Assembly: GCA_000091205.1 (NCBI GenBank)
Contig: AP006487.2
Direction: 5' to 3' (one strand)
DNA length: 64,000 nucleotides
From: Cyanidioschyzon merolae
Lineage: Eukaryota
Shown: positions 1 to 50,870 of the stretch, one piece after another
How positions within the stretch are numbered: position 1 is the stretch's first letter
How the letters are laid out: the number at the start of each line of letters is the position of its first letter
The notes under the pieces: model-generated
Told to the model about the DNA's origin: nothing
What the model saw: only the letters and a program-made list of their open reading frames with translations
The model's database searches: none
Made by a program: the position numbers and the translations under genes

Positions 1-3000
1 CCCCCCATTCCCCCCATTTGCACGAGTCCTCGATGCGCGGTCTTCTCGGAGATTCGTTTAACGGCGCCCAGCCTTGTTTGCGTTGCTTGCCCATGGCTTT
101 CTCTTGTGGAATTGATTTCACTTGGCATTGTCCAATCATTGCTATCCACTTACATTTCAGCTGTGGTCGATAGCCGCAGTCGACACTTCGACTTCCAGTA
201 AACGGTATTTTGGAATGTGACTTAGACATCCGTAGCGATACTGGAGACCAATCTTCTGCTTACTTATACCTATTCCGCTTACTATCCAGCTGGTATAGTT
301 TTGTTCAAATCCGATAGGTTTCAGTTTCTTCACGTTCAGCACTCTCCATTCTGTCAGCTTACGTCTTTCTATCTCTTTGCCATTTTATTCCTCGGGCTCT
401 CTTTGATGACGTTTTGTACTTCAGCCTTCCTTTTTCTGCCACCCAGGGAGTATGAGCTTCTGCTGAATTTCGCCGATGGCCTACGATTCCGTAGCCATGG
501 TGTACTGCCCGACTCTATTTACATCGGTAAAGTGCTGTGAAACAGTTGGTATCGGTCGTTTTCTTGTTTTTGTATTTCTTGGCCTGGTGTGAGCCTTGTC
601 TTTATGTCCAGGACGCATGGCCCGAAACTGCATTTTCCTTCTATGCCTTGGTTTTTCTGTGCGTTTGCAGCCCAGCGCGCCTTGGCGTCCCGGGTTGACC
701 GCCCAGACTCCTTCGAGCACCAGCATGTTTCACGGTTCGGATGACGTTACCTTCTTCTCACATGGCATTTTCTGGTCCTTGCGAGTTCTTTGTATGGTGC
801 TTCAATACTCTTCTTTTGTTGCATCTTTTAGCGCCCAACATTTGGATTTCGCAGCAGTAAGTATATGCATTTTTCTTTGGCGGGTTATTTCATGTAGGTT
901 GGACGTTGTGCGTTGCTTAATCCATGTAGAATGTCATCTCATATTCATCATGGATTCCAACGCATTGCGCTCTCTTTAATGTTTCTGGGCAACAGTGTAC
1001 GATTGCTGTTTTCTACTGAACGATACTGCAGTCGCGGGTACTTCTGTGTTGTCCATTGGCTGCTATTGGAACTTTTACCTATGTCGCACTAGTGCATGCA
1101 TTGTATCGACTGCGATCGACTCACCGATGATCCATATTGCCTGCGTTCCGCTTCCGACATATTCTCCATCGTCGGCCTCTGGAATCTGCGAGGAGGACAA
1201 ACTGTTCCACCATTTACATTTTGCTTCTCGGGCTTCAGGTTGCAATCACTGGAATAGATATCGAATGCTTCGTGGGCTCCTACTCTATTTGAGTCTGTAT
1301 ATACACTATTACATACTCTGTCACCCTTTTTTATGCGCAAGATAACGCACAATACCATACCGCTTAGGATAACTGTGTGGCAGCAAATATGAGAGTCAAA
1401 ATTTAGGAATAAACATTCGGTCCAGGCGTAGACTTTCAGGCACAAGTCATTCAATCCTGATTTACCATCGATGCATCCACTGCCCCGACGGCTCATGCCC
1501 GTGAAACTGGAATCCTTGGCTTCCATTCCGATATCCTCTTCCCGCACTAACCCCATATGTGCTCTCGAAGTGGATCATCACCAGGACCTTATCTTGATTA
1601 CAGTACTGCGAGCTGCTATGCAAGGTTTTGCTTTTGTACTCGGTGCCAGGCTGCTATCGCTGCACAAGATGCCTGATCATGCATTTTCTCGTTGCGTACC
1701 CCTATCGGTCCAAAATCACTATTCCAACCATCATTATGCAGACTGACAAGCTCTTTTGACCACTTTCAGTATGCCAAGTCTATTGACTATGACAAACTAC
1801 TGCATTAGCGATCCATTCACCTCATCTGCAAGCACCTACTTCATGGCCGCCACGAATGAAGCGTAAATTTGATGTTCCGCCCGTCCACAGCTGGTACTAT
1901 CATTCGGCTATCATCATGACACCTCTGGTACCCTTTCTGCCTAGGGTTGCATCTTAGATCCGTCGCACCGGTGCTCGCAAGCGTGCCAGAGCACAACGCA
2001 CGCCGTCTCTTGCGACACATGCGACCCGGGTCAACCAACGAAAACACCGTCAACAACCAAGAGCCCCGATCGCGCCGGCTATTGTTGCCTTCCGTCTACA
2101 CTCAAAGCGATCCTGGTCGGCACTGCAGGGTCTCGCTAGTTCAGGTCAGCATCCAGGTTGGCGTCGCTTATTAAGATCATGTCTGCGAAAAGCACCTCAA
2201 TCCTTTACACTATTAGTCGGTGGCCGCCCCGTTAAGATATTGCTGCGATGGCGTTCATATGATCAAAGAAGCCGCGACTGTGTCAATCGTGAAGCTTGAG
2301 ATCTTTTTTATTCGATACATCTTATTCTGCATCTCGGTGTCTTTCTTAACAGGAGGACAAGTCTCCGTTCATCGGCAGTAGTCTCAATCGTCGGGGATCT
2401 CGCCACGACCGTGCACACATTCGATAGGTACGGTTATAAAGTAAGAGCTCTTAGGTTGCCTTCAATTCTGCTCGCCGTGCTGCGGTAACTCTCACTTTGG
2501 CTAGATTCGCCCCCTGGATCTCGCTGTGCGCTCTATCCTGCCTCTACGCTTTAGCACGCTTGCGGCATTTCCATGGTCTTATAGCTTACTTGCGCCCTCT
2601 GCTTGGACTCATTTTCTCGACAACAAGCCCAAATCGGGACTGGATCCCAACACTGCGCTACAGTCCTTCTTGTACACGTTTTGTCCAACAGAGAGCAAGC
2701 AAGAGTCTGGGAACTTCTGAGACGACCCTTCCGCATTTGGAGCAGGCAATATGCGCTTTCGATGCTAGAGCTGTACATGCGCTCTGATGCTGGTAACTCT
2801 GCGACTTGCTTACTCAGCGACGCTGCTGCAGATGAAATGGATTCATTGATATGTACGCTTACCCTAGGGATACCGTATTCTGGTGAAATGTTTGTTGCAC
2901 GGATCGAATTGCACTTGCTCTGGAACTACTATTCGTGGGCAGAACCCATGCTAGTACATCAATCCTATACTGCATACATCCGTCTGTGTCGTTGCGGCCA

Positions 3001-3352: not shown

Positions 3353-6058
3353 TCAAGCAGACACTGAAGCTGAACCCGAAACCGATGCTGACGCACTCGC
3401 AGACATCGTCGCAGACACCGCCGCAGACACCGTCGCAGAGGGTGTCGCTGTCGCAGCCACGGGACTCGGAGTCGGTGTTGGACTAATCACCACACACTGG
3501 TTGTTGATGCACTCCTCGTCAGCGCGGCAGCAACGCATCTTGTTCACAAGGTTATCCGAAGGGATCAGGTACGTCCCGCACTGCTTCGTAGGGTCCTTGC
3601 ACACACAGAATGACGGCAGCAGCACCTGTTGTTGTTGCTGCTGTTGTTGCAATTGTTGCTGCAGTTGCTGGTTATTGTTGTTGCTGAACGGGTTGTACGT
3701 ACAGTTCTGCGTCTCGGCGTTGCAGCACTCAGGGCCGCAAGCAATATAGCTCGAGTTCGATACGTTGCCGTTCGTGCCGCTCAGCGAGTTCGACACATAC
3801 CCGTAGGTCTGGCACACGTACTCGGTCATCGGCTGGAAGCACTCGTTGCCGAGCCCCAGGCAGCAACCAGCCTCCAGGCACTGCTGCGGCGAGTAGCTCG
3901 TGCGCTGCGTCCCGTGCTGCTCCCCGTACAGAAGCGTGTTCAGCAGACGCACAAACTGGTTATTGTTGATGTTATTGTTCAGCTGCTGGTTCTGATTCAC
4001 CGCGTTCGTGCACGGCTGGCGCTCAAACTCGCCCACCGCGCACGTCTTCTCGGGCTGGAAGCAGTACGGGTTCGACGCAAAGTCGCTCTGCTGCTTGCCG
4101 TTCTGCACCCATTGGTTCTGCGCCTGCGAGTCGTAGCAGCAGCCCTGGGCATAGCACGTAAACTGGTTGATACCCGCGTTGCCGCACGGCTGGCGCTGCG
4201 CTCCCGGTGACGGGCAGACGGGAACCGGTGCCTGCACCTCCTGCAGCGCTACAGAGGCCTGCGGTGCATGGTCGATGTCGTAGTAGCACCAGGGCGCGAG
4301 GATGCCGTTCGCTGTAGGCTGCCAGCAGCATCCCGGTATCGCAGTGCACTCGTCGGGGTAGATGTAGCTCCAGCCGCAGGGGACACGTTGCGTCACTGGA
4401 ACAGCGCTGCACGCCGCTGAGACGCTCTTCAGGGTGCACGCGTTTGTCTGGGAGTTAAAGCAGCATCCGACTTGCTCGCAAGCGTCCTGGTTGGTGTACT
4501 GTCCTGGAGAGCCGCAGATCTCAATGGTGCAGACTGGTGTAGGTGTCGGCGTGGGTGTCGGGGTCGCAGTAGCAGTTGGCGTAATTGTAGGTGTCAGAGT
4601 TGGCGTTGATGTTGGCGTAGATCGAGGGGTAGGTGTAGGGAACGTTTCTCTCAAAGCGAAGGCATCATTGAGAAAGCCATTTCCGCTAGTGTTTGAGTAT
4701 CCAAATCCGCCAAACATGACCGGATCTGTTCCACTGGTGTTCCAGAAAGCTGGTCCTGCTCGACCGCCGGGAGCAACACTCGGGTCGGACTCGTTCAATG
4801 CCCCGTATACTGCAGCAGCGTTCCCCGTTGAGCTTCCATTAATCCACGCCCATTGACCCAGTTCGATATCGAAAACCCATAGATCGTTCAAAAAAACGAA
4901 ATTCACACGGTCGTTTGCGTTCCCGCCACCGCCAAAGAGCTGCAGATTACCCGATGAGTCTACGAAACTTGAACCCGAGTCTCTTCCTCCAGGATAGTTA
5001 GTCGGTGCGAATTCTCCGAGAGTTCCATATGATCCTGGATTCTGAATCGTGGTATTCCCTGCAATGAAAATCCACGTTAACTGACTTATGTTGTAGACCC
5101 ATAGATCATTCAACAGACCAGGGCCAGCTTGTGAACTGTTTCCGTATCCAATACCACCGAACAACCAGAGATTTCCACCAAGATCTGTCCACGTATAAGC
5201 ATTTCGACGTGCTCCTGGTGCATTCGTGGCATTAGCAACACCTGGTTCACTAAAGTTACCAGGCTCGTTGGGAGCCTGCGATCCGTCTCTGTACGCCCAC
5301 TGGAATGTGGTAGTATTGAATGACCAAAGGTCCGAAAATGATCCTTGATGTAAAGCTTCTCCACCGAACAGCCAAAGCAGGCCATCTGCGCCCAGCCAAA
5401 ATGCCGCGCTATCTCGGCCTCCGGGATTGTAAATTTGGCTGTAGATATCCTTCGGTCCATAGACTGGCATGGCGTTGAAAGTATCATTCCCACCGAACCA
5501 CGTCCAGATTCCCGTTTCAGTATCATACTGCCACATATCGTTCAGGTCGCCAACACCGTTTCCAGTCTTATCGAAGCCGAGTCCTCCAAACAACCAGAAA
5601 TGCTGGTCGTCCGTCTGCCAATACGCACTTCCGTAACGGCTGCCGGGTATATTATTTGGGCTGCCTGTGCCGACTGTGCCATACACTCCCGGTTGGTCGG
5701 CTTCTGAGGAACCCCCAATCCATGTCCATTCAAGTGAGGTCAAGTCGAAGGTCCATAGGTCATTTAGGTAGCTCGCAGATGGGTTTCCACTGCTAAAACC
5801 ACCAAATAAGTAAAGTGTATTTGATCTTCCGACCCAAGCTGCTGGATATTCACGACTTCTTGGGGCACTCCCAGCAGAAGTTTGGTTAAGCGTTCCATAA
5901 GTACCAGGATTATTGATACCCGTCTCTCCACCTATCCAGGTCCAGCTAACCGTACTCACAGGCGACAACGCAGCTACAAGCGACACGGAAAACGTCGCCG
6001 CCAACAATAGACAAACAGCAACAACCAGGCCACGCGCCGGAGAAAGAGCTCGAAACAT
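3353..6058 (-). CDS. Secreted multidomain protein: signal peptide, six Kelch-type beta-propeller blades, Thr/Pro-rich linker, 4-5 trefoil (P-type)-like Cys-rich modules, polyQ/polyN tracts
   Basis: Uninterrupted 901-aa ORF with ATG at 6056-6058. N-terminus 'MFRALSPARGLVVAVCLLLAATFSVSLVAALSP' is signal-peptide-like. Six ~50-aa repeats carry Kelch hallmarks (W.W..G...PG.R...W...LFGG.G...NDLW.FD). Linker 'TPTPTPRSTPTSTPTLTPTITPTATATPTPTPTPTP'. Modules such as 'RVPCGWSYIYPDECTAIPGCCWQPTANGILAPWCYY' and 'QPCGNAGINQFTCYAQGCCYDSQ...NPYCFQP' fit the trefoil pattern R..CG...I...C...GCC[FWY]D...P[WY]C[FY]. CAG/CAA-encoded polyQ and polyN runs. Confidence 0.8.
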   Translation of the reverse strand: MFRALSPARGLVVAVCLLLAATFSVSLVAALSPVSTVSWTWIGGETGINNPGTYGTLNQTSAGSAPRSREYPAAWVGRSNTLYLFGGFSSGNPSASYLNDLWTFDLTSLEWTWIGGSSEADQPGVYGTVGTGSPNNIPGSRYGSAYWQTDDQHFWLFGGLGFDKTGNGVGDLNDMWQYDTETGIWTWFGGNDTFNAMPVYGPKDIYSQIYNPGGRDSAAFWLGADGLLWLFGGEALHQGSFSDLWSFNTTTFQWAYRDGSQAPNEPGNFSEPGVANATNAPGARRNAYTWTDLGGNLWLFGGIGYGNSSQAGPGLLNDLWVYNISQLTWIFIAGNTTIQNPGSYGTLGEFAPTNYPGGRDSGSSFVDSSGNLQLFGGGGNANDRVNFVFLNDLWVFDIELGQWAWINGSSTGNAAAVYGALNESDPSVAPGGRAGPAFWNTSGTDPVMFGGFGYSNTSGNGFLNDAFALRETFPTPTPRSTPTSTPTLTPTITPTATATPTPTPTPTPVCTIEICGSPGQYTNQDACEQVGCCFNSQTNACTLKSVSAACSAVPVTQRVPCGWSYIYPDECTAIPGCCWQPTANGILAPWCYYDIDHAPQASVALQEVQAPVPVCPSPGAQRQPCGNAGINQFTCYAQGCCYDSQAQNQWVQNGKQQSDFASNPYCFQPEKTCAVGEFERQPCTNAVNQNQQLNNNINNNQFVRLLNTLLYGEQHGTQRTSYSPQQCLEAGCCLGLGNECFQPMTEYVCQTYGYVSNSLSGTNGNVSNSSYIACGPECCNAETQNCTYNPFSNNNNQQLQQQLQQQQQQQQVLLPSFCVCKDPTKQCGTYLIPSDNLVNKMRCCRADEECINNQCVVISPTPTPSPVAATATPSATVSAAVSATMSASASASVSGSASVSA

Positions 6059-8826
6059 CTCGTTCGACGCTCTCTCAGTCCAATAAATACGGATATTTGT
6101 TCTTTCTCGAGTGAATATATCTTCACTATTGTTTTTTCGTTATGGCCAACACGAACGTAACCGCCGTGTGTTGTGAAAGCCAGAACAACAACGCACAGCT
6201 TGATAGCGCCAAAAGCGCGAAACGCGCGCGCACTACAGAGGAATTTGAATTGGGGTCATCATGATGCGATGAAGAATTCACGTTGATGTCGAGACTGGAG
6301 CGTAACGGACGTAGGGAATTCGGGGTACATAGTCCGAAATATCCAAGTTGAGAGAGGTACTGAGAGCTATATATAGGCTAGTGGGATTTCATTCGAATGA
6401 GTAACTCCCGAGTACTGCTCCTTCCGAGTGCCAGTCAGCAGGGTTCAACAGACTATGGCTTTGGGTAAGAAGGATAGCGGATAATGAACTATCGGTTACT
6501 GAGCTTCGTCTGTCAGCCGAAAGGCAGATGTATTCCTAAAGCGATTCATCTATCTTAAGTTTTCGCAAGACGATTGTGGTGGAAGTATTCCGTTTTACTG
6601 TTTGTGTTTAGCAGTCCTTTTCTGGTGGAGACAGCCAGGCAGAGTACATGGGAGGTTTGTCTTCCTCTGTACCATTGGTGTTTATTTTATACAGAAAACA
6701 TCGAATAATGAGCTCCTATATCTCTGTTGCGAGGAAACCTAAAAAATATCGCTCGAAAGGAAAATGGTCTCTGCTTAGGGAGTGGATGTCGTCGTTCGAA
6801 GTGACAGGCATATACGCGTACGCATGTTTGGACATTCAACGTACAAAGCGAGAACTCCTATGTCTTTTGTTCATCGAACCTCATTCGGCCTATGCTAGGA
6901 GCCATGTGTATCAACCGTGGCTCGCAAGCCTTACATCACCAAGCATTTCCAGGGATGGTGCAGACCAGTGATCCGTGGAGGATGCTCTCCCGATCGGAGA
7001 CTTCTTGACGTTTCTTCCAATTCTCCGACACCGACTCCATGGTGTCTACCTTTACATCTGCGACCTGCAAAACAATCTTCCGTTGCTGCAAATGACTCTA
7101 CCTACATGAGTGTCAGCCTCTCGGTATTGGGCCTACCCCATTTTATCTCGGTACCAATCAATACCTGGTCTCGCTTCTCAGATTGGATACTTGTATGGAC
7201 TTTGGAAACGCATTAGTCTGCGTTGGTCTTTCGACAGCAGCCAAGAAAACCCTCCGAAGTCTGCGGGTCCGTTAATCGACATCGGATCATTCGTAACTGC
7301 TTGATCAGGATCGCTTAATATGTATCGGCTTTTTTAAGACGGAGCTTAGTCTCTTGAAAGATCATATTCCCAGCGGCATCTTTCCGTAACTATTTTGGTG
7401 AGTAGCAAGCAATTTAGAGGACCAGTACAAATCTTTGGCTACCCGACAGTTTCCCCGGCAAGCTCCAGGAACGTCTCCGCTTAGTTATCGATCCAACAAC
7501 TAAACATGTCCACCAAGTCTACAGACCATTTTTATCTCGAATTTCCACCTTGCTCAGGCATTTATGCCAGCAATTGTCTCGCGATGTGCTTTTCATATAG
7601 CACATTCCCCAGCGCGCATCCTATTTCCCAGAACTCTCTACCCAGATACTTTGCCAAATATACCTTGTTCTGTTTTCTCGAATTACTAGCACGAGGCACG
7701 ATCACCGTTTCTGTCAGTCAGCGGAGCCATGATTCAATGCCTGGGCCTCTTGCATTGATCTCTGTTCGATGCCTCGCTGCTACCGCCTCATCGGAGGCTA
7801 TTTGGAGTTTCTCGCATGTGAAGGCGCTTTCAAGAGTGGAGAGCTTCTTCATGCTACTATTCAGCCTCTGCAATATTGTGCACAATCTAGCTTTCGGACT
7901 GCTTGCGTGGTTCAGCTGGTTACCCTGCTGTATTCTGTATGGAGAGAAAACAGAAGCTCAATCCGTTCTTGCAACTCAATGTATTTGCCAGTAATCTCCG
8001 GCAGTAGATGATAGAAGCCGGAAACTTCCCTCTATTTGACAATTTACCTTCTTGGCTGAATCTGCCTCGAACCGAAAATTTCTGTAGAGATGGTGGTTCC
8101 TGTTTCCTTGTCGTGATGGCAGTGATGAAACACGACCCATGTTGCTCTTCTTCAGCACTGCTTTCCCAGTATGCTGGGGGGCGCCGTTTGTCAGCATTGC
8201 ACCCTGGTAGTCGAGCACCTTCTAGCTCAACGCTCTGTGAAATCCGGTCGGCTTGCGCGGACTAAGGACATATCCTAGTGCAGCTTCCGGATATTACGGC
8301 CGTCTACGTCAAAAAGAGAGACTGCTCTGCAACTCGTCGAACCGATTCATCTTTGGAAGGGGCCATACGTCGCTTTCCTTGTACCCGGGCAGCTCTTACG
8401 GGCCAGGAAAACCTGATTCGATGCATCTGTCTCACGCCCGTAAAAGCAGCATCGGATGCATGTCATGGTCAGTTCCAGATCCCCTATGGGCTCCAACAAT
8501 AAATGTCCCCAATTCGGAACGCTTTACCGTACACTCCAGGAGGTATGCGCTATCTGCAGTGGCCACACATCTGCTCTACTCTCATGGACGACCACTTTCA
8601 GCATATTCTGGCCCATTCAATGGCAAGCAGTTCATAGTTACTGCACTAATTATCACATTTTGGAATATGCTTTTTGGCTCGCGAGACGCTTTTGGTACAT
8701 CCCTTCAGGAGGAATGCCTTCTCACCCGTTCACCATACGATAGTGAATACAGCAGGCCGTCTCATCGCTACACCGTTGCCCCTACATCCGTCCCTGATGC
8801 AGCGGTCTGCGCTTCGAAGGCGCCTC

Positions 8827-9908
8827 TCATCTTCGAAGCCAACACACTTTATTCAGGAAAAACGTATCCGACTTGAGACCTCGCCGCCGCAACGTCTGGT
8901 CGATCAGATCAAGGCTCAGTTCGTAAAGCTGATCTGCCTTGTCGATTTCATACGTTGGTTCAATGACCTGCGGTTTCGTCTTGTCTCGACCTTCCGTATA
9001 TTTGCCACGCCACTGATAATACGAGCCCGAGTCAGAGAACCGTCCCTGGGTCGCCATTTCGGCTACGCGGCGGCTGGCCCCATCATTCGGAACGTATTGC
9101 CGAGTGATGTACTTTTGAAGAATCGGGAAGAAGACGTAGCGGAACCAGCCACGCTTTTCACGGAAGAGGTTGCTATCGGCGACACATCCCGGGAAAATCG
9201 CTACAGAGGTCACCCCGTCGCGGCCGTATCAACCACTAAGCGCCTTCATTGTCAACACGTTCGCCGCTTTGGCGTCTTTGTAGGCTTATGTGGGCTCAAA
9301 CGGACCACTGTCCACCATGCCCGTCGTCTGCGGATCAAGCCCCGCGGCTAGACCCAACAAATCACCGAGACGAGCCTGCGGGGAATCTTTCCCGGCAACG
9401 AATTCGGCGAATGGGTCTGAGTCGTCAGAAACACAATGCGCCCGCGCGATATTTTCAGCTTCGGCAACAGCTCCCGACAGAGAAGCAAATGGCTCAGATG
9501 GCAAACCTGTATGGCCTTCTCGATGCCGTCCACCATGAAACGCGGTTTCTTGTACCGCGGATGCTATATTGCGGCATTGCAGATCAGCGCATCCAGGTGA
9601 TCAACGCGCGCTACTCTCGATAGCCCTCTCACAAACTCCAACACAGAGGCGAAATCAGCCAGATCACAATACAGCACTGTATAGGCGTCCTTTGGAAGGT
9701 TCACGCTGTTTGCTGCGCGTTCCGCCGGATCAATGTCACGACATGCCATGACGATATGCCAGTTGCCCTTGTTGATCAGAGCGGAAGCTGCATACAGATC
9801 GACTCCAGAGGACGCGCCGGTGATCACGGTGATCTGCGACTGTTTCGGACCTATACGAAGATGTAGCGCGTGGTGTCGGCGCGCTACAGGCGAACGCTGC
9901 ATTACCAA
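8827..9908 (-). pseudogene. Light-dependent protochlorophyllide oxidoreductase (POR)-like short-chain dehydrogenase, disrupted by two in-frame stops and one frameshift
   Basis: Four minus-strand ORF pieces (9564-9908, 9348-9536, 9286-9504, 8827-9213) align colinearly to POR: 'VITGASSGVDLYAASALINKGNWHIVMACRDIDPAERAANS' (POR GKWHVIMACRD signature), 'CHLSHLLLCRELLPKL', 'PQARLGDLLGLAAGL', 'IFPGCVADSNLFREKRGWFRYVFFPILQKYITRQYVPNDGASRRVAEMATQG'. Pieces 1/2 and 3/4 are each in the same frame, separated by a stop (TAG at a conserved Tyr position near 9565). Pieces 2/3 differ by a 1-nt shift in a 'gggaaag' run near 9385-9395. Confidence 0.6.
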
Positions 9909-10443
9909 AGGAAGCGGATGCTGACAGTGGTGACGATGTCCAGCTGCGAAGCACCCGTCACGTGGGGTACGCAGCGGGAACCGTGCACGAGTTGCAGCGC
10001 GCGCGCGAAAAATGTGTCTTTCCTAGTACAGCGGAACAGAAACAAAACGAGCTTATACTTTCTTGGATTAAGTCAGCTCCGGTGCGAAAGCCTCCGATTA
10101 CGTCACCAACTGGAGAGGTTGCGTATGCGTGCTCAACCAGTCAAAAACTTTTTTGCGTAGCTACACGACTGATCGCCCGTCAGTTGCACAGAATCCGAAT
10201 TCGACCTCCCGTAAACTGCATCGCGTTGAGCGCAACTCGCGTAAGCCCTCTGTGTCCATTGTAGAAGCTAGGCAAAACTCTAAGTTTTCTGAGCAACAAT
10301 CTCGCCAATACTAGTCGCTAGGCGCTTCGCAACGTTGAGCTCGGAGATCACGGCGGTCGTAGATGAACTTCATCGTAGCTCGCCTACGAATAACGTAAGG
10401 GAGGTGAAAGGGGGTTTTCTCCGGTGGTATGTTATTTTACAAG

Positions 10444-10530
10444 CTTCGTCAGTTGGAGACGATTCGCCTAGGGCGGGTTTCTCTCCACCATTGTACACCG
10501 CTGGCGTCGTTTGACTCTAGAACGGCGTTT
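10444..10530 (+). repeat. Solo copy of the ~85-nt 3'-terminal block of the Fanzor-like element (candidate transposon right end / omega-RNA-like region)
   Basis: About 80% identical, same orientation, to 13835-13920. It includes the shared core 'ggcgtcgtttgact(c)tagaacggcgtttg'. No upstream nuclease ORF is recognisable here. Confidence 0.5.
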
Positions 10531-12656
10531 GTTGTTGGCGGTGTGGGCTCGATGTACGGGTTAGGCTCTTGAAAATAATCTTATAGAGTAGACTAGAGTA
10601 CGTTAGGCGCTTTTGTCGGGTTCCTCGATCGCGCCAGGCGAGATGCGTCGGTCAAACGCCGTGCTACGTATGGACGCTCTATATGTGATATGCCTCTACC
10701 AAGATCGCCGTATCCGGAGGACGAGGCAGGCACCATAAGCTAGACAACGACGGCAGCATGCAAATGGCTTGAACGCTCATCAGTACGAGGCCGTGACGCC
10801 CGGCAGAAGCAAAATTCGGCTCAGTCCCCTATTCCAGCGTCCGTTCAGTATGCATAACAAGCACCCGGATAAAACGTATATCCGTGTTCAGGAATCCTAC
10901 CGCGCCTTTTTTTCCGATCAATAAAACTAACAGAAATCCTATCGAGTAGAGTGCTGGATACCTCATCCGCACGAGCGCAGGATACTACGGTGGCTACGCG
11001 TATGCTGGAATCATCGCGGAGTTTCGTGCCGGGCTCCTGCATCTCTATGTATGCCACTGCGGTGCTGCGATGGGCAGTAGCTTCGGCACCAGCGACAGAG
11101 TCTATAGCAAGAAATTATTCTACGTGAGTTTTCGATCTAGGACACTTGATTTCCGCTGCAGCGCGATGCGAACACGCATGTCCCAAGGCGGGGCGTCGGA
11201 CACGTGTCCTTCATCGATCGGTGGGGCGTCTCGCGCGGTGCGTGCATCGCGCCGGTGAGCGCAACTGGGAGATCGGGCAGGCATGAAACACGATGTGCAT
11301 GCCGTTGTGGAAGGGAAACGTGATCTCGATCAGAAGCGTGTTGTTCTGCTGTAAATATTTTTATTGCGTTGAGTTCATAGCAGAGTACGGCTTTTCAGTT
11401 TATTTCTGTTTCAGCCCTAAAACGAGTCTAGTCAAGCGTCTTGTCGCAGTAAATAACTGAAGGGTTCAAAGAGTGTTTTTTCTCAAAAAAACAAAAAAAG
11501 GAAAGCTATGAAAAAGCAAGTCGACGATCCAGGGGGGCCCGGAGTCGCCAGCTGCCAAAAAAACAAAAAAGAATACCGAACCCAGAAGGAAAGGTAGAGA
11601 AAAAGGAAGCAAAAGGTGGAGGCCCCACGACGAAGGCGCCAAAAAGACAACTGTACAACGAGATGGTGGTGAAAGCCTGTCTTCTTAAACACTCCATGGA
11701 TCCGTACAGGGAAAAGTTGCGAGACGCTATCAAAAAAGTGCTGCGTCATACTCCAAAAGTATTGCCAAGGCGTCGTCAGGACTGATGCATTTGGCGGGGA
11801 AGATGTATCGAGATGTGACGCACATGGAAATAGTCAAGATTTTGGACGAGTTTTTCGACAAGACTTTTATTCGACACCTGATGCTTGGTAAAGAGGAAGC
11901 GCGGAGTGAAAATGGGCGGATGCACGTCCTCCACGAAAACTTCGCCAAAATCCGCTTCGAGGGTACTCGATACAAGGGCGACGCGGATATTTACATATAC
12001 GGGGCGATGAAGTACCTCACGAATCTGCAGAACCATTTGACAACAAACCTCGAACGTTTCATGATACGCGCCGTGGTTGCACTCTACCCGGGCATCTCTT
12101 GCAATAGGAAAGGGGCGATGATCAACGGCATCACGAATGATCGCAAGCATGAACATGAGATCGAGTTCGTCGACGTGAAGGCGTCAAACAAGAGCACGAA
12201 TGAAGGTTCTGTAATCCGTGCGGTTCTATATGAGCACCGTGCGGTACTGGGTCTGGCGAATCCAAAAGACGTGGTATCAGACTTGAAAAGGATGAAGTAA
12301 GATACAATCGCCTCGTCCTGCGGTATTTCATGTTTCTGGACCGAGAGCTCGAACGCGAAGCGGAGATGAAGCAGAGTGAAAAGACATATGAAGAGTGGGA
12401 GAGACGGAAGGCTTCCCTAATGGGTAAGCGCTTCAACGTAGTTCGAATGCGCAACATCAAGTCACATTTCGTGACTATCGACTCCAGAGTCCTTTACGGC
12501 ATCATGAAGGAGATCCGTCCGGAGTTCAATGTTAGCAGGGAGGAATTTTCCGGTGAAAACCGAGAGACGTGCTGAAAGAGTATCTTCGATTTCAAACGTC
12601 TCAAAGTGAGCGAACAAAAGGTATTCACTGGGTTGATCTAAACCGATGGAGTAGCC

Positions 12657-13529
12657 TTGTGTATACACTATCGGCGATTGAAGAAAGATCGGCCAGTCCC
12701 TCCCGCGGCTGCGCCCGTGACGAGGGATGAAGAAAAGGAGGCGGCTCGTCCTGCGACACAGGAGGTGGAGGAGAATGACCTCGTCGTTGGCGTGACGAAG
12801 GATGAAGATGAGAAGGAGGCGGATCTTGCGACGCAGGAGGTGGAGGAGACTGACCTCGTCGTTGGCGTGACGAAGGATGAAGATGAGAAGGAGGCGGATC
12901 TTGCGACACAGAAAGTGCAGGATAACGGCTTTGTCGTTGGCGCGGACCCTGGGAATACGAATATCATAACCATCGCTGCTCCCAAGCGCGCGAGAGATGG
13001 TGCTGATGGTAACTTACTCCAGAAAGACATGCGTTTTTTGAGGTTCTCACGAGCGAGATACTATCGAGAACCGGGAATGATGAATGCGAGGAAGAAAATT
13101 GGTACGTGGAATGTAAGAATGAAGGATCACCTGGAAGCTTTAAGCGAGGTGACTAGCCGAGGAGCGGACTTTGGAGCTTTTCGGAAATTCATGGAAATTC
13201 GTGTTGCCCAATGGGATGCACTGTGGGAGGAGTATACGAAGCCCCGGTGCGCTCGTCTGCGATTGAGTCTGTATTGTAGGAAGCAACGGGCGTTCGCGAA
13301 TTTTTTTAATCAGTTGAGCGCCTTGAAGGAGGATGATGGTCAGAGGCTCGTAATAGCGTATGCAGCAGGGCGCTGGGCGTCGAAGAGAGGGACTACACCA
13401 GCACCAACGACGAGGGTGTACAAGGAGTGTGCACGGCGTTTTGATACAATACGGATAGACGAGTTCCGAACATCGTATACACATCATGAACTGGATTGTG
13501 CACTCCAGAGAGTGGAGATGGAAAAGTAA
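12657..13529 (+). CDS. Fanzor/TnpB-like nuclease core fragment (RuvC-I/RuvC-II region); probably non-functional as a stand-alone ORF
   Basis: 290-aa ORF (track start is TTG). Contains 'DPGNTN' RuvC-I and '[18 protein letters not shown]'. Internal 60-bp tandem duplication encodes '[24 protein letters not shown]' twice. Confidence 0.55.
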
Positions 13530-13580
13530 CAGACAAGCCTTGAGGATATAGCAAAGTACGGACCGCTGACCGAAGAGCAA

Positions 13581-13859
13581 ATGGAAAGGAGGGCAAAAGT
13601 TCGTGGACTCCTTCCATTAGTACGTACAACCAATGATGGCAAGAAACGCATGGAATTCGTGAACCGTGACTTTCATGCCGCTATCAATATAAGGAAATAT
13701 GCGGTGCTGGAGAAGAGACCTCCAGAGCTGCCAAAAGTGAATTTTTTTGTACAACCTTCCAAAATTGAATTATTTGAGAAAATATTGGAAGCGGTAGTGG
13801 GTGGCCGGTCCAAAAACACGGGGTGGCGTCTGCACGTCAGTCGGAGACATCAGGTCTAA
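13581..13859 (+). CDS. Fanzor/TnpB-like C-terminal fragment (RuvC-III motif)
   Basis: 'MEFVNRDFHAAINIRKYAVLEKRPPELPKVNFF...', in frame with 12657-13529 but separated from it by TAA. The homologous C-terminus recurs at 30660-30742 (minus strand) and 57700-57929. Confidence 0.55.
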   Translation: MERRAKVRGLLPLVRTTNDGKKRMEFVNRDFHAAINIRKYAVLEKRPPELPKVNFFVQPSKIELFEKILEAVVGGRSKNTGWRLHVSRRHQV

Positions 13860-13973
13860 GGCGCCGGTTGGCGCGTCTACTGTACACAGTCGGCGTCGTT
13901 TGACTTAGAACGGCGTTTGGCCGCGTTTCACTTTACCGCAAAACTTCGGTACTCTGAAAAGCGATTTCGTGCA

Positions 13974-14623: not shown

Positions 14624-17497
14624 TCAGTTCGATAAATCAAGCTCGAGTTCGAGTTTCAGAAGAGCACCGACATGCTCAGCTCGCAAAGAGTCGAAAGCAT
14701 ATGGTCCCGGAAGTAACACCCACCAGTACTGGAGGATGTCCCAGAGTAAAAGTCGATCGTCCGAAGACGCCGGGGCGCTTGCGCTCACCTCCGCATTCCT
14801 TTCTGGGGAGGCTCGCGAGCGCGCCTGTACATTCACAACGAACGGCCATCGCTCGCAAAGCTCCTGCTGCAGCTGGTTAAGTGCGGACCAAACTTCATTG
14901 CTGCGATCCGCGACACCTCCTGAAGACTCTGGGCATATCGCCGCCCAGTCTACGATTTGACAGATCGCACCACTGTCCGTCGTCAGGAAGACACTGCACT
15001 GCGGAAAGCATCGAGCCATCCTTGTCCGCTGACTCGCGTCGCCTTCTGCGAATGGCAGTGGAGCAGACGCGACTTGTACAGAGGCAACTGCACCGCCCAA
15101 TTCGAGTGTGAGTCCATCGTGCCTCCAGCGACATAATTCATCAACGATGGTGGTATCACGTACGCCTGCCGCTCCATCGAGAGCCCTTGAATGCAGTTCG
15201 AGTTCATCAGGAATCTCTGATCCGGGTCGATATCTTCGCTGCTGCTGAGCACAAGGCACCTCTTCGAGGAATGCGACCTGGGCGTCGTTCGCAACGAGCA
15301 ACATCCTATTTGGCAGGAACCTGACTCTGCGGACTTCCTCTATGCCCGTTTGGATAACTCCTAACGAGCGCAACACAAATCGGCATGTCGCCGAGGCCGT
15401 CTCCGCAGCATGGTACTGCACTAGTCCGACCTGGTACAGGGTGTCGCCACCGAGTGTGACTACGACCTGAAGGAGCGATGTCGAGCCAGATTTGTCTCTG
15501 GCTTCCGTTTGCGCATGGTCACATTCAAGCAAACGCACCGTGATATCAGCCCAGCGGTGCGGACCGTCTCGTTCTAAACACACACCGGTCCAGGCTGGAT
15601 CCACCAGGAACGGTAGCTGTCCCTCCGCCGCCGCCGCCGCCGCAGCAGCAGCAGCAGCAGGCGCATACACTGCAAGCGTACTTGACGCGTCTACACCTAG
15701 GTACATCCGCGTATCCCCTCGCATGCATATCTCGCATGATGGAATCGGTGTCATTGCGAGTATGTCCAGTTCTGCTGGTGTAGATGGCGGCTCCTCCATC
15801 TGTTGCTGCTCTTGTAAAGGCCTACTCGCTGAAGGCAGGTCAAAGCTGCCAGCGATGCAGGGCGGATTCCTGGAAGCGTATCGCTGCGCAACGCGGTGCT
15901 CCTGTGCCGCGGGATTTTCCGGCAATTTGCACGGTAATGGACCATACGAACGAAGGTGCAGGAGACGCTGCCGCTGCTGCTGACGCCGCCAACGCCACCA
16001 CCACCACCAGAACGAGAACCATGAAGATGCGTCCTCCGAATTAGCATCATTTTGGCGCAGGGGTGCAGATAGCTCATCAAGACACGCTAGGCGCCACGGT
16101 TCTTCAGTGGTATGGTAAAAATGCCAACGCACGACTTGCAACCGCCCATCACCGCTCACAACAAAAGACTCGCCCATCCATGAGACCAAATGGTCACTGC
16201 ACGTACCATATTCGAGAAGCGATTCCCCAGTGTACTGACGATGGCTCGGTAGAATCGCGCTTGGGACACCCCAGGCAGCTAAAGGATCGAAAATCACGCG
16301 CCGAACTCGCATCGCCCGGCGGCCGAGGGCCGCATGTGCATCCCAGAACACCCTCCATAGCTCGTGTCCTACAACGAGAATATCTTCTGGATGCGCGGGC
16401 TGACCTCCACAAATGCGATAGAGTTTCAGGGGCTGGTGGCTAAGGTGCCATTTGGCATAGAGATGCCCCGTAAAGCGGTCGAGCTGGACAAGCCAGCCGC
16501 TACGAAGCGAAACCAGCAGAGCGCTACCCTCGCGAACGCTGTACACAGACTCCACCGCCGCAGCGTCCAAGTCGCCGGTTGCCACGTGCGGCATAATACG
16601 GAGTCGACGTTTCACAGCCGCCGTCTGCTCGTCGTAGTCGAAAATGTAAAGAGCGCCATCAGAAGACGCCACAGCGACACCCTGCAGGCGCCGATCTGAC
16701 GCAATTGTAGCGAGAGCTGTCACCTCACTACGATCAAAGAGATCACATCGACAACGCTCCGTAAGTGAGGCAGCATCCAACACAATGAGCAGTGGACAAG
16801 TAGCAGTCTCGATCACACAGGTAAGCGCCAGCACGGCCTCTGCCACGCCCGCAGGCGATGCGTCGGCGTGCGTGATCTTTCCTGGTGCCTGCCAACGTGA
16901 CGTCACGAAAGCACGCAGTGCGCTGCATGCGCCATGCGTGCCATGCACTGCGTGCGGCTCTGCGATGCGTGCGACGCAATCGCGCGCTACGATAACGGAT
17001 TCATAGAAGCACGCAATGATATCGATGGATAAGGGCCACGAGTCGCTAACGTCCTGAGCCGTCCGTTGCGCTTCGTCAATACGTAACACGACTGGTGCTC
17101 CTAAATCATCCTCTTTGTTAAAGACACGGTCACAGATAAGTAGGTAGCGGCCGCCTTGTAGCCAGAACACTCTGGAGGACCCCGTCAGCAGATTCGGATC
17201 GCTCTCCAACTGTAGCGTGGCATAGTCTCCGCAATCCAGTGACGACAAGTGCACACCATCAGAGCTCTGATGCAGCATACAAAAGCTCGCGTGGTGGCTG
17301 CATCTCTTTTGGAGGGGCGCTTCGCGCGAGGGCCACGGCTCCCGTCCGCGCAGGCCGCTGTCGATGAGGACGGGCCCCCGCCGCTCGGTGGTGCGCCACC
17401 TGCGCGCAAGCTCCGGTGCGCCGCGTGAACGAGACCGAGAGCCTGCGGACCGGGACAGAATAATCGTGAAGCAGGGGCCAAGACTCCGGAGGTCCAC
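14624..17497 (-). CDS. C-terminal part of the same large protein (possible beta-propeller plus alpha-solenoid architecture; nucleoporin- or tethering-factor-like, unassigned)
   Basis: 957-aa ORF, same strand, contiguous with 17185-19104. Segments such as 'SSDGALYIFDYDEQ' are propeller-like, followed by a long helical region. No family motif recognised with confidence. Confidence 0.55.
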   Translation of the reverse strand: MDLRSLGPCFTIILSRSAGSRSRSRGAPELARRWRTTERRGPVLIDSGLRGREPWPSREAPLQKRCSHHASFCMLHQSSDGVHLSSLDCGDYATLQLESDPNLLTGSSRVFWLQGGRYLLICDRVFNKEDDLGAPVVLRIDEAQRTAQDVSDSWPLSIDIIACFYESVIVARDCVARIAEPHAVHGTHGACSALRAFVTSRWQAPGKITHADASPAGVAEAVLALTCVIETATCPLLIVLDAASLTERCRCDLFDRSEVTALATIASDRRLQGVAVASSDGALYIFDYDEQTAAVKRRLRIMPHVATGDLDAAAVESVYSVREGSALLVSLRSGWLVQLDRFTGHLYAKWHLSHQPLKLYRICGGQPAHPEDILVVGHELWRVFWDAHAALGRRAMRVRRVIFDPLAAWGVPSAILPSHRQYTGESLLEYGTCSDHLVSWMGESFVVSGDGRLQVVRWHFYHTTEEPWRLACLDELSAPLRQNDANSEDASSWFSFWWWWWRWRRQQQRQRLLHLRSYGPLPCKLPENPAAQEHRVAQRYASRNPPCIAGSFDLPSASRPLQEQQQMEEPPSTPAELDILAMTPIPSCEICMRGDTRMYLGVDASSTLAVYAPAAAAAAAAAAAEGQLPFLVDPAWTGVCLERDGPHRWADITVRLLECDHAQTEARDKSGSTSLLQVVVTLGGDTLYQVGLVQYHAAETASATCRFVLRSLGVIQTGIEEVRRVRFLPNRMLLVANDAQVAFLEEVPCAQQQRRYRPGSEIPDELELHSRALDGAAGVRDTTIVDELCRWRHDGLTLELGGAVASVQVASAPLPFAEGDASQRTRMARCFPQCSVFLTTDSGAICQIVDWAAICPESSGGVADRSNEVWSALNQLQQELCERWPFVVNVQARSRASPERNAEVSASAPASSDDRLLLWDILQYWWVLLPGPYAFDSLRAEHVGALLKLELELDLSN

Positions 17498-19104
17498 GCA
17501 TCTGGAAGATGCAACCAGTCCATCTGACCGAAAAAGTCCCAGCAGAGGATGTTCACATGCGGTCCTTCGCCGAAAGCCACCAGTCCGGCTGCGTCTCGCG
17601 CGTCACGCGGCAATGAAACAGGGTCCCCCGATTGTAGACGGACGCTGCGAACGACTCCAAGATCACACTGGACGAGCGTGCCATCTTGACGGACGAGCAA
17701 TAACTTGAAATCCCCCGTTTCCGGCTGGGATACAGCGCAGTATGCGAGGAACGAGTGCATAGCCGTCGTCTGCTCGTTGTTCGACATTGTGCGGGGTCCC
17801 TGCAATGGACCAAACTGCGGACGTAAAGAGCGTTTCTGGAAACGCAGCGGCAATACATATCGATCTGTGACGACGTAAACCAAACGGTCTCGCGAATCGA
17901 AATCCGAGGCATTCGAATTAGAGAAATCGATAGCTGTAGGGTCCGGATGAAAGGGATGCGATTCAATGCCGAGTACGTACGCAGACGGCAGCGCCGCCCG
18001 GAAGCACATGGTGCGGGCATCGTATCGAAGCTGGAGCCCGCCGTGGCTATCGTGCATCGATGCCGGCTCTTCGTCATCCTGTATCAATGCTTCTTTGTCA
18101 CCACTCTTCGGCAGTATTTCCTCGTCTTTCAGAATCGCTCCGTGATCACTCGCTTCTAGACGGGTAAGCAGAGCATCTTGATCGGCCCCTTGGGCACATC
18201 GCACGTCGTCGACAAAGATAGAAAGCAGGATAGATGGTGCATGGTCTTCTGGGGCCCGCCACGCTGCACTGCGCAGCTCACGTTCGATCGAAGAAATGCC
18301 TATTGTGATCGTCACTGTACCGCATTCAGTGCATTCGTCTGGGCGATAAGGCACGGCGAGACTGCAGACGTCGTGCACGAAGCCCGGCGCAGGATAGGCC
18401 ATCCACGCGAGCGGTACAAGCGGAGCATCGCAGCTCTCAGTTTTTGAAAGAGGCACCGGTGGCGCCACAAGTTCCCAGTTAGGCCCAGCCAAGGCCAGCG
18501 GTTCGTTTTCTGCTAACCAGCATCTGATGCCTTCAAAGCCAAAGAACATGTGATGTCCTATATTGAGCAACAAACGATCGAGACTCTCCGCATAGCGGAG
18601 TTGGAAAGTCGTTGGCAGCTCCCTTTCGATCGCTTCAGCCAGCTCATTGCACTCAGTGTAGAGCGAGCGGGAGGCGAAGCGCTGAAAGAACCCCACTTCA
18701 AAAGCGGACCCTGTCGTGTCCGTCGGGTTTCGAGCGCAAAACCACAGTGCATGCAAGACGAGCCGCCTATCCAAGCACAGCAGGACGTCGCCCTTTTTCA
18801 AGGGAGGATCACTACACCGCGCTTCGGCCGACTGCGAGTGAGGCGCTCCTGATGAACGTCGCCTAAGCGGCACCGTACACGCAGCCAGGAGCTGCATATT
18901 GATGTTTTGTCTATGCACCAGTCGAGGACCGCGTGAAGAAAAAGCCCATAGTGCCAACCAAGATCCGCTTACGATGACGACGTGATCTGCACCTGTTGAA
19001 GTCGAAGCAGTAACCCTGAAAGGAAGCACCGTTCTGAGCTTCTCACTAGGGCGACTCGTACGCAGCACAAAACGCGGCCGCTTCCGGTAGGCGCTCGGCG
19101 CCAT
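17185..19104 (-). CDS. N-terminal part of a very large conserved-looking protein of unknown function (continues in 14624-17497)
   Basis: 639-aa ORF with ATG at 19102-19104 and coding-like composition. Overlaps the next ORF in another frame across a low-complexity Gly/Ser/Arg segment (17185-17497). Confidence 0.55.
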   Translation of the reverse strand: MAPSAYRKRPRFVLRTSRPSEKLRTVLPFRVTASTSTGADHVVIVSGSWLALWAFSSRGPRLVHRQNINMQLLAACTVPLRRRSSGAPHSQSAEARCSDPPLKKGDVLLCLDRRLVLHALWFCARNPTDTTGSAFEVGFFQRFASRSLYTECNELAEAIERELPTTFQLRYAESLDRLLLNIGHHMFFGFEGIRCWLAENEPLALAGPNWELVAPPVPLSKTESCDAPLVPLAWMAYPAPGFVHDVCSLAVPYRPDECTECGTVTITIGISSIERELRSAAWRAPEDHAPSILLSIFVDDVRCAQGADQDALLTRLEASDHGAILKDEEILPKSGDKEALIQDDEEPASMHDSHGGLQLRYDARTMCFRAALPSAYVLGIESHPFHPDPTAIDFSNSNASDFDSRDRLVYVVTDRYVLPLRFQKRSLRPQFGPLQGPRTMSNNEQTTAMHSFLAYCAVSQPETGDFKLLLVRQDGTLVQCDLGVVRSVRLQSGDPVSLPRDARDAAGLVAFGEGPHVNILCWDFFGQMDWLHLPDAWTSGVLAPASRLFCPGPQALGLVHAAHRSLRAGGAPPSGGGPSSSTAACADGSRGPRAKRPSKRDAATTRAFVCCIRALMVCTCRHWIAETMPRYSWRAIRIC

Positions 19105-25587: not shown

Positions 25588-26706
25588 CTATCCGGATACA
25601 AGCTGCTCAACCTGCATGCTCAGTGGTGCGTGCAGCAGCGCGTAAGAAACGTTTGCTTTGAACAATCCCATGTGCTGTTGCTCTGCGCTCACAGAGAACC
25701 ACTGATGAAAACGACTCTGGCGGATGATCTCAGCGGTGTTCCGATCCACGCGCACAGGTTTCTCTTTGGGGAACGTGAAGAAGCGATCGAGCTTGAATTC
25801 TTCGCCAATCCCGCCCAGGTATGTAGCTAACTGTCCGTAGTCCTCCCGGGTTCCTTCCAGTGTTGCGATCTTGAAACATCGATAAGTGCATGAATAGAAC
25901 TGCACGTTCGACACGAGCTTTCGTAGTTGCGGATCAATGACATCGACAGGACTGCCTGCAACCAATCGCACGTCGCGGAACCCTGCCTCTTCCATGAGGC
26001 GACGGAAATCCTCCAAGTAGAGCGCACCGCCGAGGCCCTCTCCGTACATGACCGGATCCTGTTTGGCCGCTGCGCTCAGCCTGCCACCCGCATACATATC
26101 GGAAAAGTACAACTCGCCTCCGTTGCGAAGAACACGGTGAATCTCCTTGAATAACGCCAGCTTGTTCGTCGATAGATTGCAAACACAGTTGCTTATCACG
26201 ACATCGACCGAGGAGTCCGGAACACCTTCCGGTTCCGCAGTGGCTAGGTTCTCGATGAAACCCTTAAGAAAACGCACATTCGACCGACTCGGACTCCCGA
26301 AAAACTTTTCTGCATGATATTCTGTATATTTCCGGGCGACTTCAAGTTGACTGTCGAGCATGTCCACCCCAATGACTTTACCATGCTCGCCAACCAGCTT
26401 TGAAGCGAGGTACACGTCGCGACCTGTGCCGCAGCCCAGATCTAGTACCGTCGCGCCCTCGAGAGAGCTATCATCCGGGAGCGTAGACCCGCAACCGTAG
26501 AACTTTTCCAGGATCTCATCAGCGATCTCTGCCAGGATTTGGCGATGGCTCTCCGGGACAGCCGCGGCAAGCTTGCAAGCGCTCGTCTTTAGGTCAGTGC
26601 TTGACTGAAGCGTTTTGCCGTAGTAGTCCGCCACGTGGTCCCGAATGGACGGAGATGAGCCACTATTCTCTGACTTTTGGCAACCAGAGGCACAGCTGCA
26701 CGGCAT
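25588..26706 (-). CDS. AS3MT: Arsenite S-adenosylmethionine methyltransferase (AS3MT/ArsM type)
   Basis: '[51 protein letters not shown]...[37 protein letters not shown]' is colinear with AS3MT, including the Cys-rich N-terminus (MPCSCASGC). Track start 26718 is TTG; ATG at 26704-26706. Confidence 0.85.
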
Positions 26707-27644
26707 GGTTCGCAGCAAAATAGCCGTTCAGTTCCACTCTGAACAAATACACGTTCTTGCTTTGTCAGCGCCAGCAGCGATGTGCACAGTGAAGATGTTT
26801 TAGCGTAATAGACATCTGGCTGCTTCGCAAGGCCTACCTTCCCGCACACATGATCGTCGATGCATGCGCATCGCGCGACTGTCATCGACACCAGAAGAGA
26901 GAATGACGACTAATAGACAATTCTGTACAAGATTGCTTTCCCGCTCTAGGGTGAGCGGTGGTACGTCGAAAAGTTTCCCATGTTTTCTATCGGATCCTTA
27001 TAGTGACAAGGTTTCGCGAGCAGGACAAAGCTGCCGGTCTTTCGCTCCGTGCCCCCCCGCTGGCGGGTGCTAGAGTGAGACCTCAGCTGCTTGTCCGTAA
27101 CAAAGCACATTCTGGGACTAGGAGCAGGCTGCTGCGTCTGGGCGTCGGTCTGGTTGTGGTGGACTCCCAGTGTAACGCTTCGCGCTGCCGCAGGTGGCAC
27201 GTCTGTCCGCAAAGCCTACAGACTACCAGAATAGTGACGAATCCCGATCCCGTTTGGGATCAGCCTCAGCTCGAGCCGACGCTTTCAGTTGTATGGCAAA
27301 GCCGTTCTGTCTCCGTTCTGCATCCGCCCGGCCGTATGGGCGCTATGGCGGGTGCAGTAAGGCAGGCGCTCGGCGCACGATAGAACGTTCGGAACGACCA
27401 TCTCATCCGAGAGGATGTAATGGAGCTTACAGGTAGAGAGCGGCATAATGGACGCTTTCCCGAAAGCGATTACCTATCGCGCAAGCTGATAGCCGTGGCC
27501 AAAGTAAACGTATTTTCAAAACAAATGAGTGGGACCGTCTATACGCCTCCAGCGCTTGTCCGTAGCGACAGAAGCGTGCCACCACGCTACCCAGGGCAGC
27601 GCCCGGAAAGCATGTGGTGGAAATATGGGAACACGTGACCACTG

Positions 27645-35937: not shown

Positions 35938-36125
35938 GTCTCCATTCCATACGGGAATACTCCACAGGGCATCCGCGAATGCTGCCCAGCATCCCTAGCT
36001 ATGCGGGATGCAGTTTGTCTCCATTCCATACGGGAATTCTCCACAGGGCATCCGCGAATGCTGCCCAGCATCCCTAGTTGTGCGGGATGCAGTTTGTCTC
36101 CATTCCATACGGGAATTCTAGACAC
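35938..36125. repeat. Tandem repeat, ~78-bp unit x ~2.4 with internal inverted repeats
   Basis: Unit 'tctccattccatacgggaat(a/t)ctccacagggcatccgcgaatgctgcccagcatccctag(c/t)t(a/g)tgcgggatgcagtttg' repeats head-to-tail. 'gcatccgc…gcgggatgc' forms a dyad. Confidence 0.6.
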
Positions 36126-42059: not shown

Positions 42060-42269
42060 TGCGGAGAAGCTTGTCTACTGGGTCTTGCTATAGCGGAACG
42101 CACTCATTCAGCGCTTTCCGTCCCTTGGTATCCGAAGCCGACCCAAGTGTCATCGTGTACGCGATGTTTCGTAAACCTCGCCGCGGTAGCCCGCGGATCA
42201 TGTACCGTTGCCTGGCCTCAGGATGGAGCGAGTTCGAAACGAAAACAGTTGCCTGCAAAAATATTAAAG

Positions 42270-50704: not shown

Positions 50705-50870
50705 AATATCCATGCATGAATGCTTGGATGCACGGATGCATGAATGCTTGGATGCACGGATGCTTGGATGCTTGGATGCACGGATGCTTGCATGCACGGA
50801 TGCACGGATGCTTGGATGCACGGATGCTTGGATGCACGGATGCTTGCATGCACGGATGCATCACCGATCA
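50705..50870. repeat. 8-bp microsatellite (WYGGATGC)n, ~20 units, ~310 bp upstream of the dynamin start
   Basis: 'ttggatgcacggatgcttggatgcttggatgcacggatgcttgcatgcacggatgc...' The period of 8 is not a multiple of 3, so the ORFs reading MHECLDARM... across it are artefacts. Confidence 0.75.

Follow-up and report, generated by a model that had tools for sequence, protein, structure and literature searches.

Does a chlorophyll-synthesis gene that is broken by stop codons and frame changes, and that lies at the end of a chromosome, still encode an enzyme? If it does not, what does the loss say about the way of life of the organism that carries it? These questions are raised by a 64,000-nucleotide stretch of DNA from the red alga Cyanidioschyzon merolae 10D, referred to here as the window, which makes up the outermost 64 kb of the left arm of chromosome 5. 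An initial annotation of the window, made from its letters, described a gene of the light-dependent protochlorophyllide reductase (POR) type at 8827-9908, interrupted by two nonsense changes and one frameshift. It regarded the locus as a genuine pseudogene that implied either a redundant paralog or a relaxed need for chlorophyll. We conclude, with a probability of roughly 0.93, that the locus is a non-functional duplicated pseudogene of a nuclear light-dependent POR (LPOR), located at the left end of chromosome 5, 8.8-10 kb from the telomere.

The identity of the gene is well supported. When the minus strand of 8800-9960 is translated in three frames, a POR-like frame runs from about 9908 to 9381 and continues in a frame shifted by one base to 8827. 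The patched translation matches the LPOR equivalog profile of NCBIfam, TIGR01289, over profile positions 2-312 of 315 (E 5e-81, 272.6 bits), and the next-ranking SDR family reaches 76 bits. The score of 272.6 bits is below the curated cut-off of 331.35, as is that of an intact C. merolae POR (312.2 bits); the POR of Chondrus scores 342.7. Pfam recognizes only the generic adh_short domain in the patched translation. A tblastn search of the window with the intact 403-aa POR P0001 aligns residues 3-400 at 89% identity in two frames. In a protein search, the best matches of the patched sequence are intact proteins of 403 aa (92% identity), ahead of named red-algal PORs (~50-55%) and cyanobacterial LPORs (~45%). 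The assignment to POR is thus borne out by an end-to-end profile match and by the tblastn identity to an intact enzyme. A second SDR gene of the window (43944-45419) was considered as another POR and rejected; at just 25% identity, it is another kind of SDR.

The gene is longer than first described. Homology to P0001 starts at residue 3, which corresponds to position 10052, so the gene reaches ~150 nt upstream of the start reported earlier and takes in the region of the transit peptide. Codon 1 of the functional frame is at 10058-10056, and the present, shifted frame closes at the TGA at 8829-8827. The 3' limit of 8827 given by the initial annotation is therefore retained, and its 5' limit of 9908 moves to 10058, as shown by both tblastn and the DNA alignment with the functional coding sequence (CDS) on contig L001.

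The lesions were listed from a MAFFT/DNA alignment with the same functional CDS (Table 1). The damage consists of a lost start codon, five in-frame stops (codons 2, 12, 165, 258 and 277), two 1-nt deletions and one substitution of a conserved glycine, G87D. Seven of these nine lesions are substitutions and the remaining two are indels. All three stop codons are represented among the in-frame stops. The coordinates of all lesions fit one frame count from 10058, so there are no additional indels. The first deletion (CDS position 675) puts the sequence beyond codon 225 out of frame. The second, at CDS position 1196, converts the C-terminal tail KSTILAPV* into KSDTFFLNKVCWLRR*.

Table 1. Coordinates of the POR pseudogene, its lesions and its subtelomeric surroundings in the 64-kb window.
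Feature	Position	Strand	Basis or occurrence
Telomere repeat (CCCCCCATT)x2	1-18	+	0 matches in 100 shuffles
Intact Kelch+trefoil ('trefoil factor') gene	3353-6058	-	Pfam Kelch and Trefoil; exact match to BAM79243
Repeated subtelomeric element with POR copy	8374-13920	.	blastn of window 1-22000 against L009-L049
Whole POR pseudogene	8827-10058	-	tblastn; DNA alignment with functional CDS of L001; TIGR01289
Lost start, ATG>GTA (10058-10056), and codon 2, CAA>TAA (10055-10053)	10053-10058	-	Common to L005, L006 and L008
Codon 12, Gln CAG>TAG, transit-peptide region	10023-10025	-	Common to L005, L006, L008, L031 and L032
Gly87>Asp, GGT>GAT, final Gly of the NADPH-binding motif TGASSGVG	9798-9800	-	Alignment of complete PORs
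Codon 165, Trp TGG>TAG	9564-9566	-	In L005, L006, L007, L031, L032 and L033; TGG in L008, L001 and L003
1-nt deletion in C-run, functional ATCCCCCCG, here ATTCCCCG, CDS position 675	9381-9386	-	Alignment with L001
Codon 258, Lys AAA>TAA, two codons 5' of the catalytic Tyr in YKDAK	9286-9288	-	Absent from L031 and L033
Codon 277, Arg CGA>TGA	9229-9231	-	Stop located by script; alignment with L001
Second 1-nt deletion, ~8861/8860, CDS position 1196	8860-8861	-	Common to L005-L008, L027, L031 and L032

The interval of 8827-9908 contains a frameshift, as had been reported, and three stops (TAG, TAA and TGA at codons 165, 258 and 277) rather than two. Three stops and one frameshift divide this interval into five pieces and not into the four open reading frame (ORF) pieces originally described. 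The frame change had been placed in a gggaaag run; it is indeed a 1-nt deletion but lies in the C-run just 3' of that run. Similarly, the TAG that was said to replace a conserved Tyr codon is real, and the codon it replaces is TGG (Trp) in the paralogs. The residue at codon 165 is Trp in the PORs of C. merolae, Chondrus and Porphyridium, and Tyr only in the cyanobacterial LPORs compared.

The G87D change affects the cofactor site. The NADPH motif TGxxxGxG is broken in the pseudogene, where TGASSGVG reads TGASSGVD. All six complete PORs in the alignment, from C. merolae, Chondrus, Porphyridium and cyanobacteria, have Gly87, and Asp is found only in the pseudogene and in the allele on contig L008. 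The codons for the catalytic Tyr-x-x-x-Lys (AYKDAK) are kept in the pseudogene. This retention is without functional meaning because the frame has been broken before this point and a TAA precedes the Tyr by two codons. Introns were considered as an explanation for the interruptions and were rejected, since the lesions are point changes relative to the paralogs and bring in no inserted sequence. Lacking a start and carrying five stops, two frameshifts and a damaged NADPH-binding Gly motif, the locus, as read from its sequence, is unable to make a POR protein.

How did a POR copy come to lie so close to a telomere? The first letters of the window are CCCCCCATTCCCCCCATT, which is complementary to the telomere unit of C. 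merolae, AATGGGGGG (PMC1955436), and the telomere repeat at its first positions identifies the window as a chromosome end. The region 1-22000 of the window was used as a blastn query against 41 metagenome loci (L009-L049) that code for POR relatives, and more than 30 of these loci align over the POR gene. Many align at ~77-81% over several kb inside the repeated element, far past the 1.2-kb CDS. Homology that extends into flanking non-coding DNA indicates a DNA-level copy. Many of the POR loci sit right where a long contig stops, and in one case (L025/L026) both ends of a contig carry a copy, a placement typical of repeats in assemblies. A segment of the neighboring Kelch+trefoil gene (3435-4892) is co-repeated beside POR in six metagenome loci.

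These features resemble the subtelomeric elements known from Cyanidiales (PMC1955436, PMC9812998), with which the locus shares the telomere repeat, the Kelch+trefoil neighbor and the large number of repeat loci. Nozaki et al. 2007 described homologous DNA elements of up to 20 kb adjoining the telomeres of C. merolae, and the legend of their Figure 3 names trefoil factor (T) and NADPH:protochlorophyllide oxidoreductase (P) among the genes of the terminal regions (PMC1955436). Elements termed 'PH' are listed at 6L, 7R, 8L, 8R, 11L, 14R, 18R and 19R, and a decayed POR at 5L is not mentioned in that list (PMC1955436). Elements shared among chromosomes were reported to be transcriptionally active (PMC1955436). 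Cho et al. 2023 found Kelch+trefoil to be the most prevalent subtelomeric duplicates in Cyanidiales (PMC9812998), and Mikulski et al. 2017 found H3K27me3 to be enriched at C. merolae chromosome ends (PMC5405695). None of the paper texts and supplements searched mentions a POR pseudogene, and literature searches for CMG217C, CMN338C and CMD190C, the POR genes of C. merolae discussed below, gave no match in the main texts of papers. The window also contains an arsenite methyltransferase gene, BAM79249, at 25588-26718 (-), which closely resembles, over its full length, the crystallised arsenic methyltransferase PDB 4fr0 (E 3e-229); in Cyanidium, arsM is one of the genes duplicated in subtelomeres (Cho et al. 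2023, PMC9812998).

The POR copy probably arose by subtelomeric segmental duplication and ectopic recombination. It would then have decayed stepwise under relaxed constraint, possibly with occasional gene conversion from paralogs. Subtelomeric gene families that include pseudogenes are familiar from yeast MAL/SUC/FLO, Plasmodium var and human olfactory receptors, where duplication near telomeres, frequent ectopic recombination and gene birth and death are common. Unlike these contingency and surface-variation genes, POR encodes a housekeeping enzyme with a single function in the synthesis of chlorophyll.

The substitutions on the pseudogene lineage are in line with a loss of constraint. Polarised on the consensus of 19 other copies, 31 substitutions are unique to the lineage (18 missense, 2 nonsense and 11 synonymous). 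The ratio of 20 nonsynonymous to 11 synonymous changes gives an omega of ~0.6, which fits neutrality (binomial p = 0.21) in what is a small sample of 31 changes. The same changes are incompatible with the omega of 0.12-0.17 of functional genes (p about 1e-5 to 6e-4). Relaxed constraint on the pseudogene lineage is therefore likely. The pairwise dN/dS between the pseudogene and the functional CDS is only 0.25, compared with 0.17 between the functional CDS of L001 and the divergent one of L002, which means that much of the divergence accrued under constraint or was imported by gene conversion.

Wild copies of the locus record different stages of this decay. Contigs L005-L008 and L031-L033 represent the same locus, with the same neighbors (a 1492-aa ORF and a ubiquitin-like gene) and the same or overlapping lesions. 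In L031 and L033, which are 98.7-99.2% identical to the window, the TAA of codon 258 is the only lesion missing. This stop is therefore the youngest lesion and is polymorphic among close strains, and the state of L031 and L033 shows that the decay was stepwise. The syntenic copies L003, L016 and L017 are ~80% identical and have lesions of their own: the start codon reads CTG, codon 322 is TAG, and L003 also has a 2-nt deletion. Such separate lesions indicate that decay at the locus is old or recurrent. Nearly all full-length metagenome POR copies have lost the start or carry stops or frameshifts, at positions unlike those of the pseudogene. The intact-looking copies are only partial ones cut by contig ends (5' halves, in L034-L036, L043 and L047).

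One haplotype is less decayed. L008 is a 36.5-kb contig with the same neighboring genes as the window. In most 500-nt bins of its flanks, no more than ~1% of sites are different from the window, whereas 9000-9999 differs at 67 sites per 1000 nt. Over this tract, L008 has functional-type sequence and is free of the stops at codons 165, 258 and 277 and of the deletion at CDS position 675. An independent assembly from another project, L027, has the L008-like state for the 3' half of the gene, and it is in these four mid-gene lesions that L008 and L027 differ from the pseudogene. The simplest reading is that one of the two lineages underwent ectopic gene conversion by a paralog or recombined with it; any single contig might be a chimeric assembly.

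Could such exchange be the reason why the dead copy persists? The locus, dead as a coding gene, might be kept as a partner for ectopic gene conversion with functional PORs, or as a transcribed non-coding element. The L008 tract, in which functional-type sequence has overwritten four lesions, and its counterpart in L027 would agree with the first idea, and the reported transcription of chromosome-shared repeats (PMC1955436) with the second. The exchange that is seen, however, runs into the pseudogene, and no transfer from the pseudogene to a functional gene was seen. In addition, the 'repaired' allele of L008 still lacks the start codon and keeps the stops at codons 2 and 12, G87D and the C-terminal deletion with its frameshift, and the chance of a chimeric assembly applies to any single contig. 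Maintenance for such a role is thus very unlikely, and a pseudogene decaying under relaxed constraint is the preferred reading. A broader proposal is also speculative and, in our judgment, rather unlikely. It holds that the only protochlorophyllide reductase genes of the alga sit in recombination-prone subtelomeres beside decaying copies, that tracts move between them by ectopic conversion, and that the dead copies would act as a reservoir if exchange also reaches working genes. If so, dead copies would shape variation in an essential enzyme of chlorophyll synthesis.

Are the lesions themselves real? One of them is a 1-nt deletion in a homopolymer run, the kind of change that a sequencing or assembly error could produce in an intact gene. 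A separate discrepancy makes errors in the reference conceivable. Relative to L005 and L008, the window lacks one base in a GCGCGC run at 17340-17350 (~17347). Through this loss, the 1492-aa ORF that is intact in both contigs falls into two on the minus strand, 639 aa at 17185-19104 and 957 aa at 14624-17497, which overlap. Pfam recognizes no domain in the product. Either strain 10D has a true frameshift here or the reference is in error. The POR lesions, however, recur in wild material. L005, L006, L007 and L032, from four JGI data sets of hot-spring metagenomes, are 98.5-99.3% identical to the window and have the same lesions over the stretch that each covers. The last of these came, together with L031 and L033, from a scan of metagenome contigs and carries all of the lesions. 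The 128-aa terminal ORF piece, which has a GTG start, is identical residue for residue on L005, L006 and L007, which come from three different JGI metagenomes; over the POR region, these three contigs have 98.7-99.3% identity to the window. The same lesions in independent assemblies are inherited features of the lineage and not reference errors. The reference, moreover, was finished telomere to telomere (PMC1955436), and substitutions outnumber indels among the lesions by seven to two. An intact gene obscured by errors is extremely improbable, and the description of the locus as a genuine pseudogene holds.

A gene with real interruptions could still be expressed by recoding, through stop-codon reassignment or readthrough combined with programmed frameshifting. 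The presence of all three stop codons in frame is reminiscent of organisms in which stops depend on context. Within the window, 13 long intact ORFs terminate in TGA (8) or TAG (5), and the use of these codons to end intact genes indicates the standard genetic code. Seven of the 13 were looked up and are exactly the annotated C. merolae 10D proteins BAM79243, 79247, 79249, 79250, 79251, 79254 and 79257. The last of these is the dynamin CmDnm1, whose TAG stop, cited in the initial annotation as evidence against reassignment, was confirmed on the window sequence; no sign of reassignment was seen in this set. Recoding would also have to bypass a lost start and two frameshifts. Each stop differs by a single base from a Gln, Trp, Lys or Arg codon that is kept in the paralogs, and G87D strikes the cofactor motif. 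A functional product by this route has a negligible probability, and decay of a duplicated copy accounts for the interruptions.

If the chromosome 5 copy is dead, which genes supply the enzyme? The 90% identity cluster of P0001 includes two C. merolae 10D proteins, BAM81403 (CMN338C, chromosome 14) and BAM79708 (CMG217C, chromosome 7). Both are intact at 403 aa and are annotated as NADPH:protochlorophyllide oxidoreductase. Hunsperger et al. 2015 listed three POR genes for C. merolae 10D, CMD190C, CMG217C and CMN338C (PMC4337275), and the chromosome 5 copy is not among them. In the protein collection, ORF pieces of the pseudogene are found only as JGI and ENA metagenome entries and none is from NCBI. 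The plastid genome of C. merolae lacks chlL, chlN and chlB (Hunsperger et al. 2015, PMC4337275). POR is thus the sole listed protochlorophyllide reductase and its function must persist.

Judging from their coding sequences, the intact POR genes on other chromosomes can provide protochlorophyllide reduction, and the chromosome 5 copy is a fourth, dead and redundant member of the family. The working genes and the pseudogene are alike in family, in length and in their 89-90% amino-acid identity, which extends over the transit peptide, the Rossmann fold, the YKDAK motif and the C-terminus. CMN338C and CMG217C are also at chromosome ends, where the PH elements reported at 7R and 14R match these genes. 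They differ from the pseudogene in being open frames of 403 codons, whereas the pseudogene has no ATG and carries the stops, frameshifts and G87D described above. In CMD190C (in the alignment in the supplement of PMC4337275) and in the environmental protein P0008, the KAYKDAK of functional PORs reads KAFKDAK. With Phe in place of the catalytic Tyr, CMD190C may also be catalytically dead.

Both of the implications drawn by the initial annotation can now be weighed. Its suggestion of a redundant paralog is confirmed by the intact BAM79708 and BAM81403 and by the three annotated POR genes, and the intact POR it proposed to look for exists in a genome whose plastid lacks the DPOR genes chlL, chlN and chlB. 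Its other suggestion, that the lineage is secondarily non-photosynthetic or facultatively heterotrophic and that the pseudogene results from a relaxation of selection on chlorophyll synthesis, has in its favor that the dead gene belongs to the chlorophyll pathway but stands practically no chance of being right, since C. merolae 10D is a photosynthetic red alga with intact PORs and no plastid DPOR genes, and intact-looking 5' halves of POR occur in its wild relatives. The organelle-type MetRS gene (36656-38458) that had been brought in as support has no bearing on the question. A redundant subtelomeric duplicate remains the reading that we favor.

The importance of this result beyond annotation is small. 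It adds a fourth, dead POR at the 5L subtelomere to the three that have been counted, and it removes the suggestion of a lineage that is losing photosynthesis. Wild Cyanidioschyzon populations contain many independently decayed POR copies in subtelomeric elements. One locus that exists in more and less decayed haplotypes provides a small natural case of birth, death and gene conversion involving an essential housekeeping gene. The subtelomeric repeat family and its POR content are already published, and only the evidence from populations that POR copies at chromosome ends are born, die and undergo conversion is mildly new.

Several other features of the window were recorded. Two ORFs are antisense to the pseudogene, at 8253-8876 (+, 207 aa) and 8674-9351 (+, 225 aa). 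For the first, the gene calls on L005-L007 include a 199-aa counterpart, which has no domain match; the antisense ORF at 8253-8876 is probably spurious. The ORF at 12657-13529 (+) encodes 290 aa, compared with 400 aa in the 99%-identical L005 (5356-6558, -), and it is co-duplicated with POR in most of the metagenome loci. From a motif, it had been considered as a TnpB/Fanzor-like transposase; this was dropped after sequence searches of Pfam, NCBIfam and PDB gave no match. Inside this ORF, a 75-bp tandem repeat is present in 3 copies (12716-12942), and the copy number differs between the window and L008. No tRNA and no Rfam family was found within the 64-kb window. Intergenic tandem repeats occur at 42241-42872 (73 bp, 8.6 copies, 93% match) and at 35938-36119 (79 bp, 2.3 copies, 97%). 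Upstream of the dynamin gene, 50712-50861 is a short-period repeat (8/16/24 bp, GGATGCAC-like), which yields a spurious 239-aa ORF (50712-51431) that starts with MHECLDARMHECLDAR.
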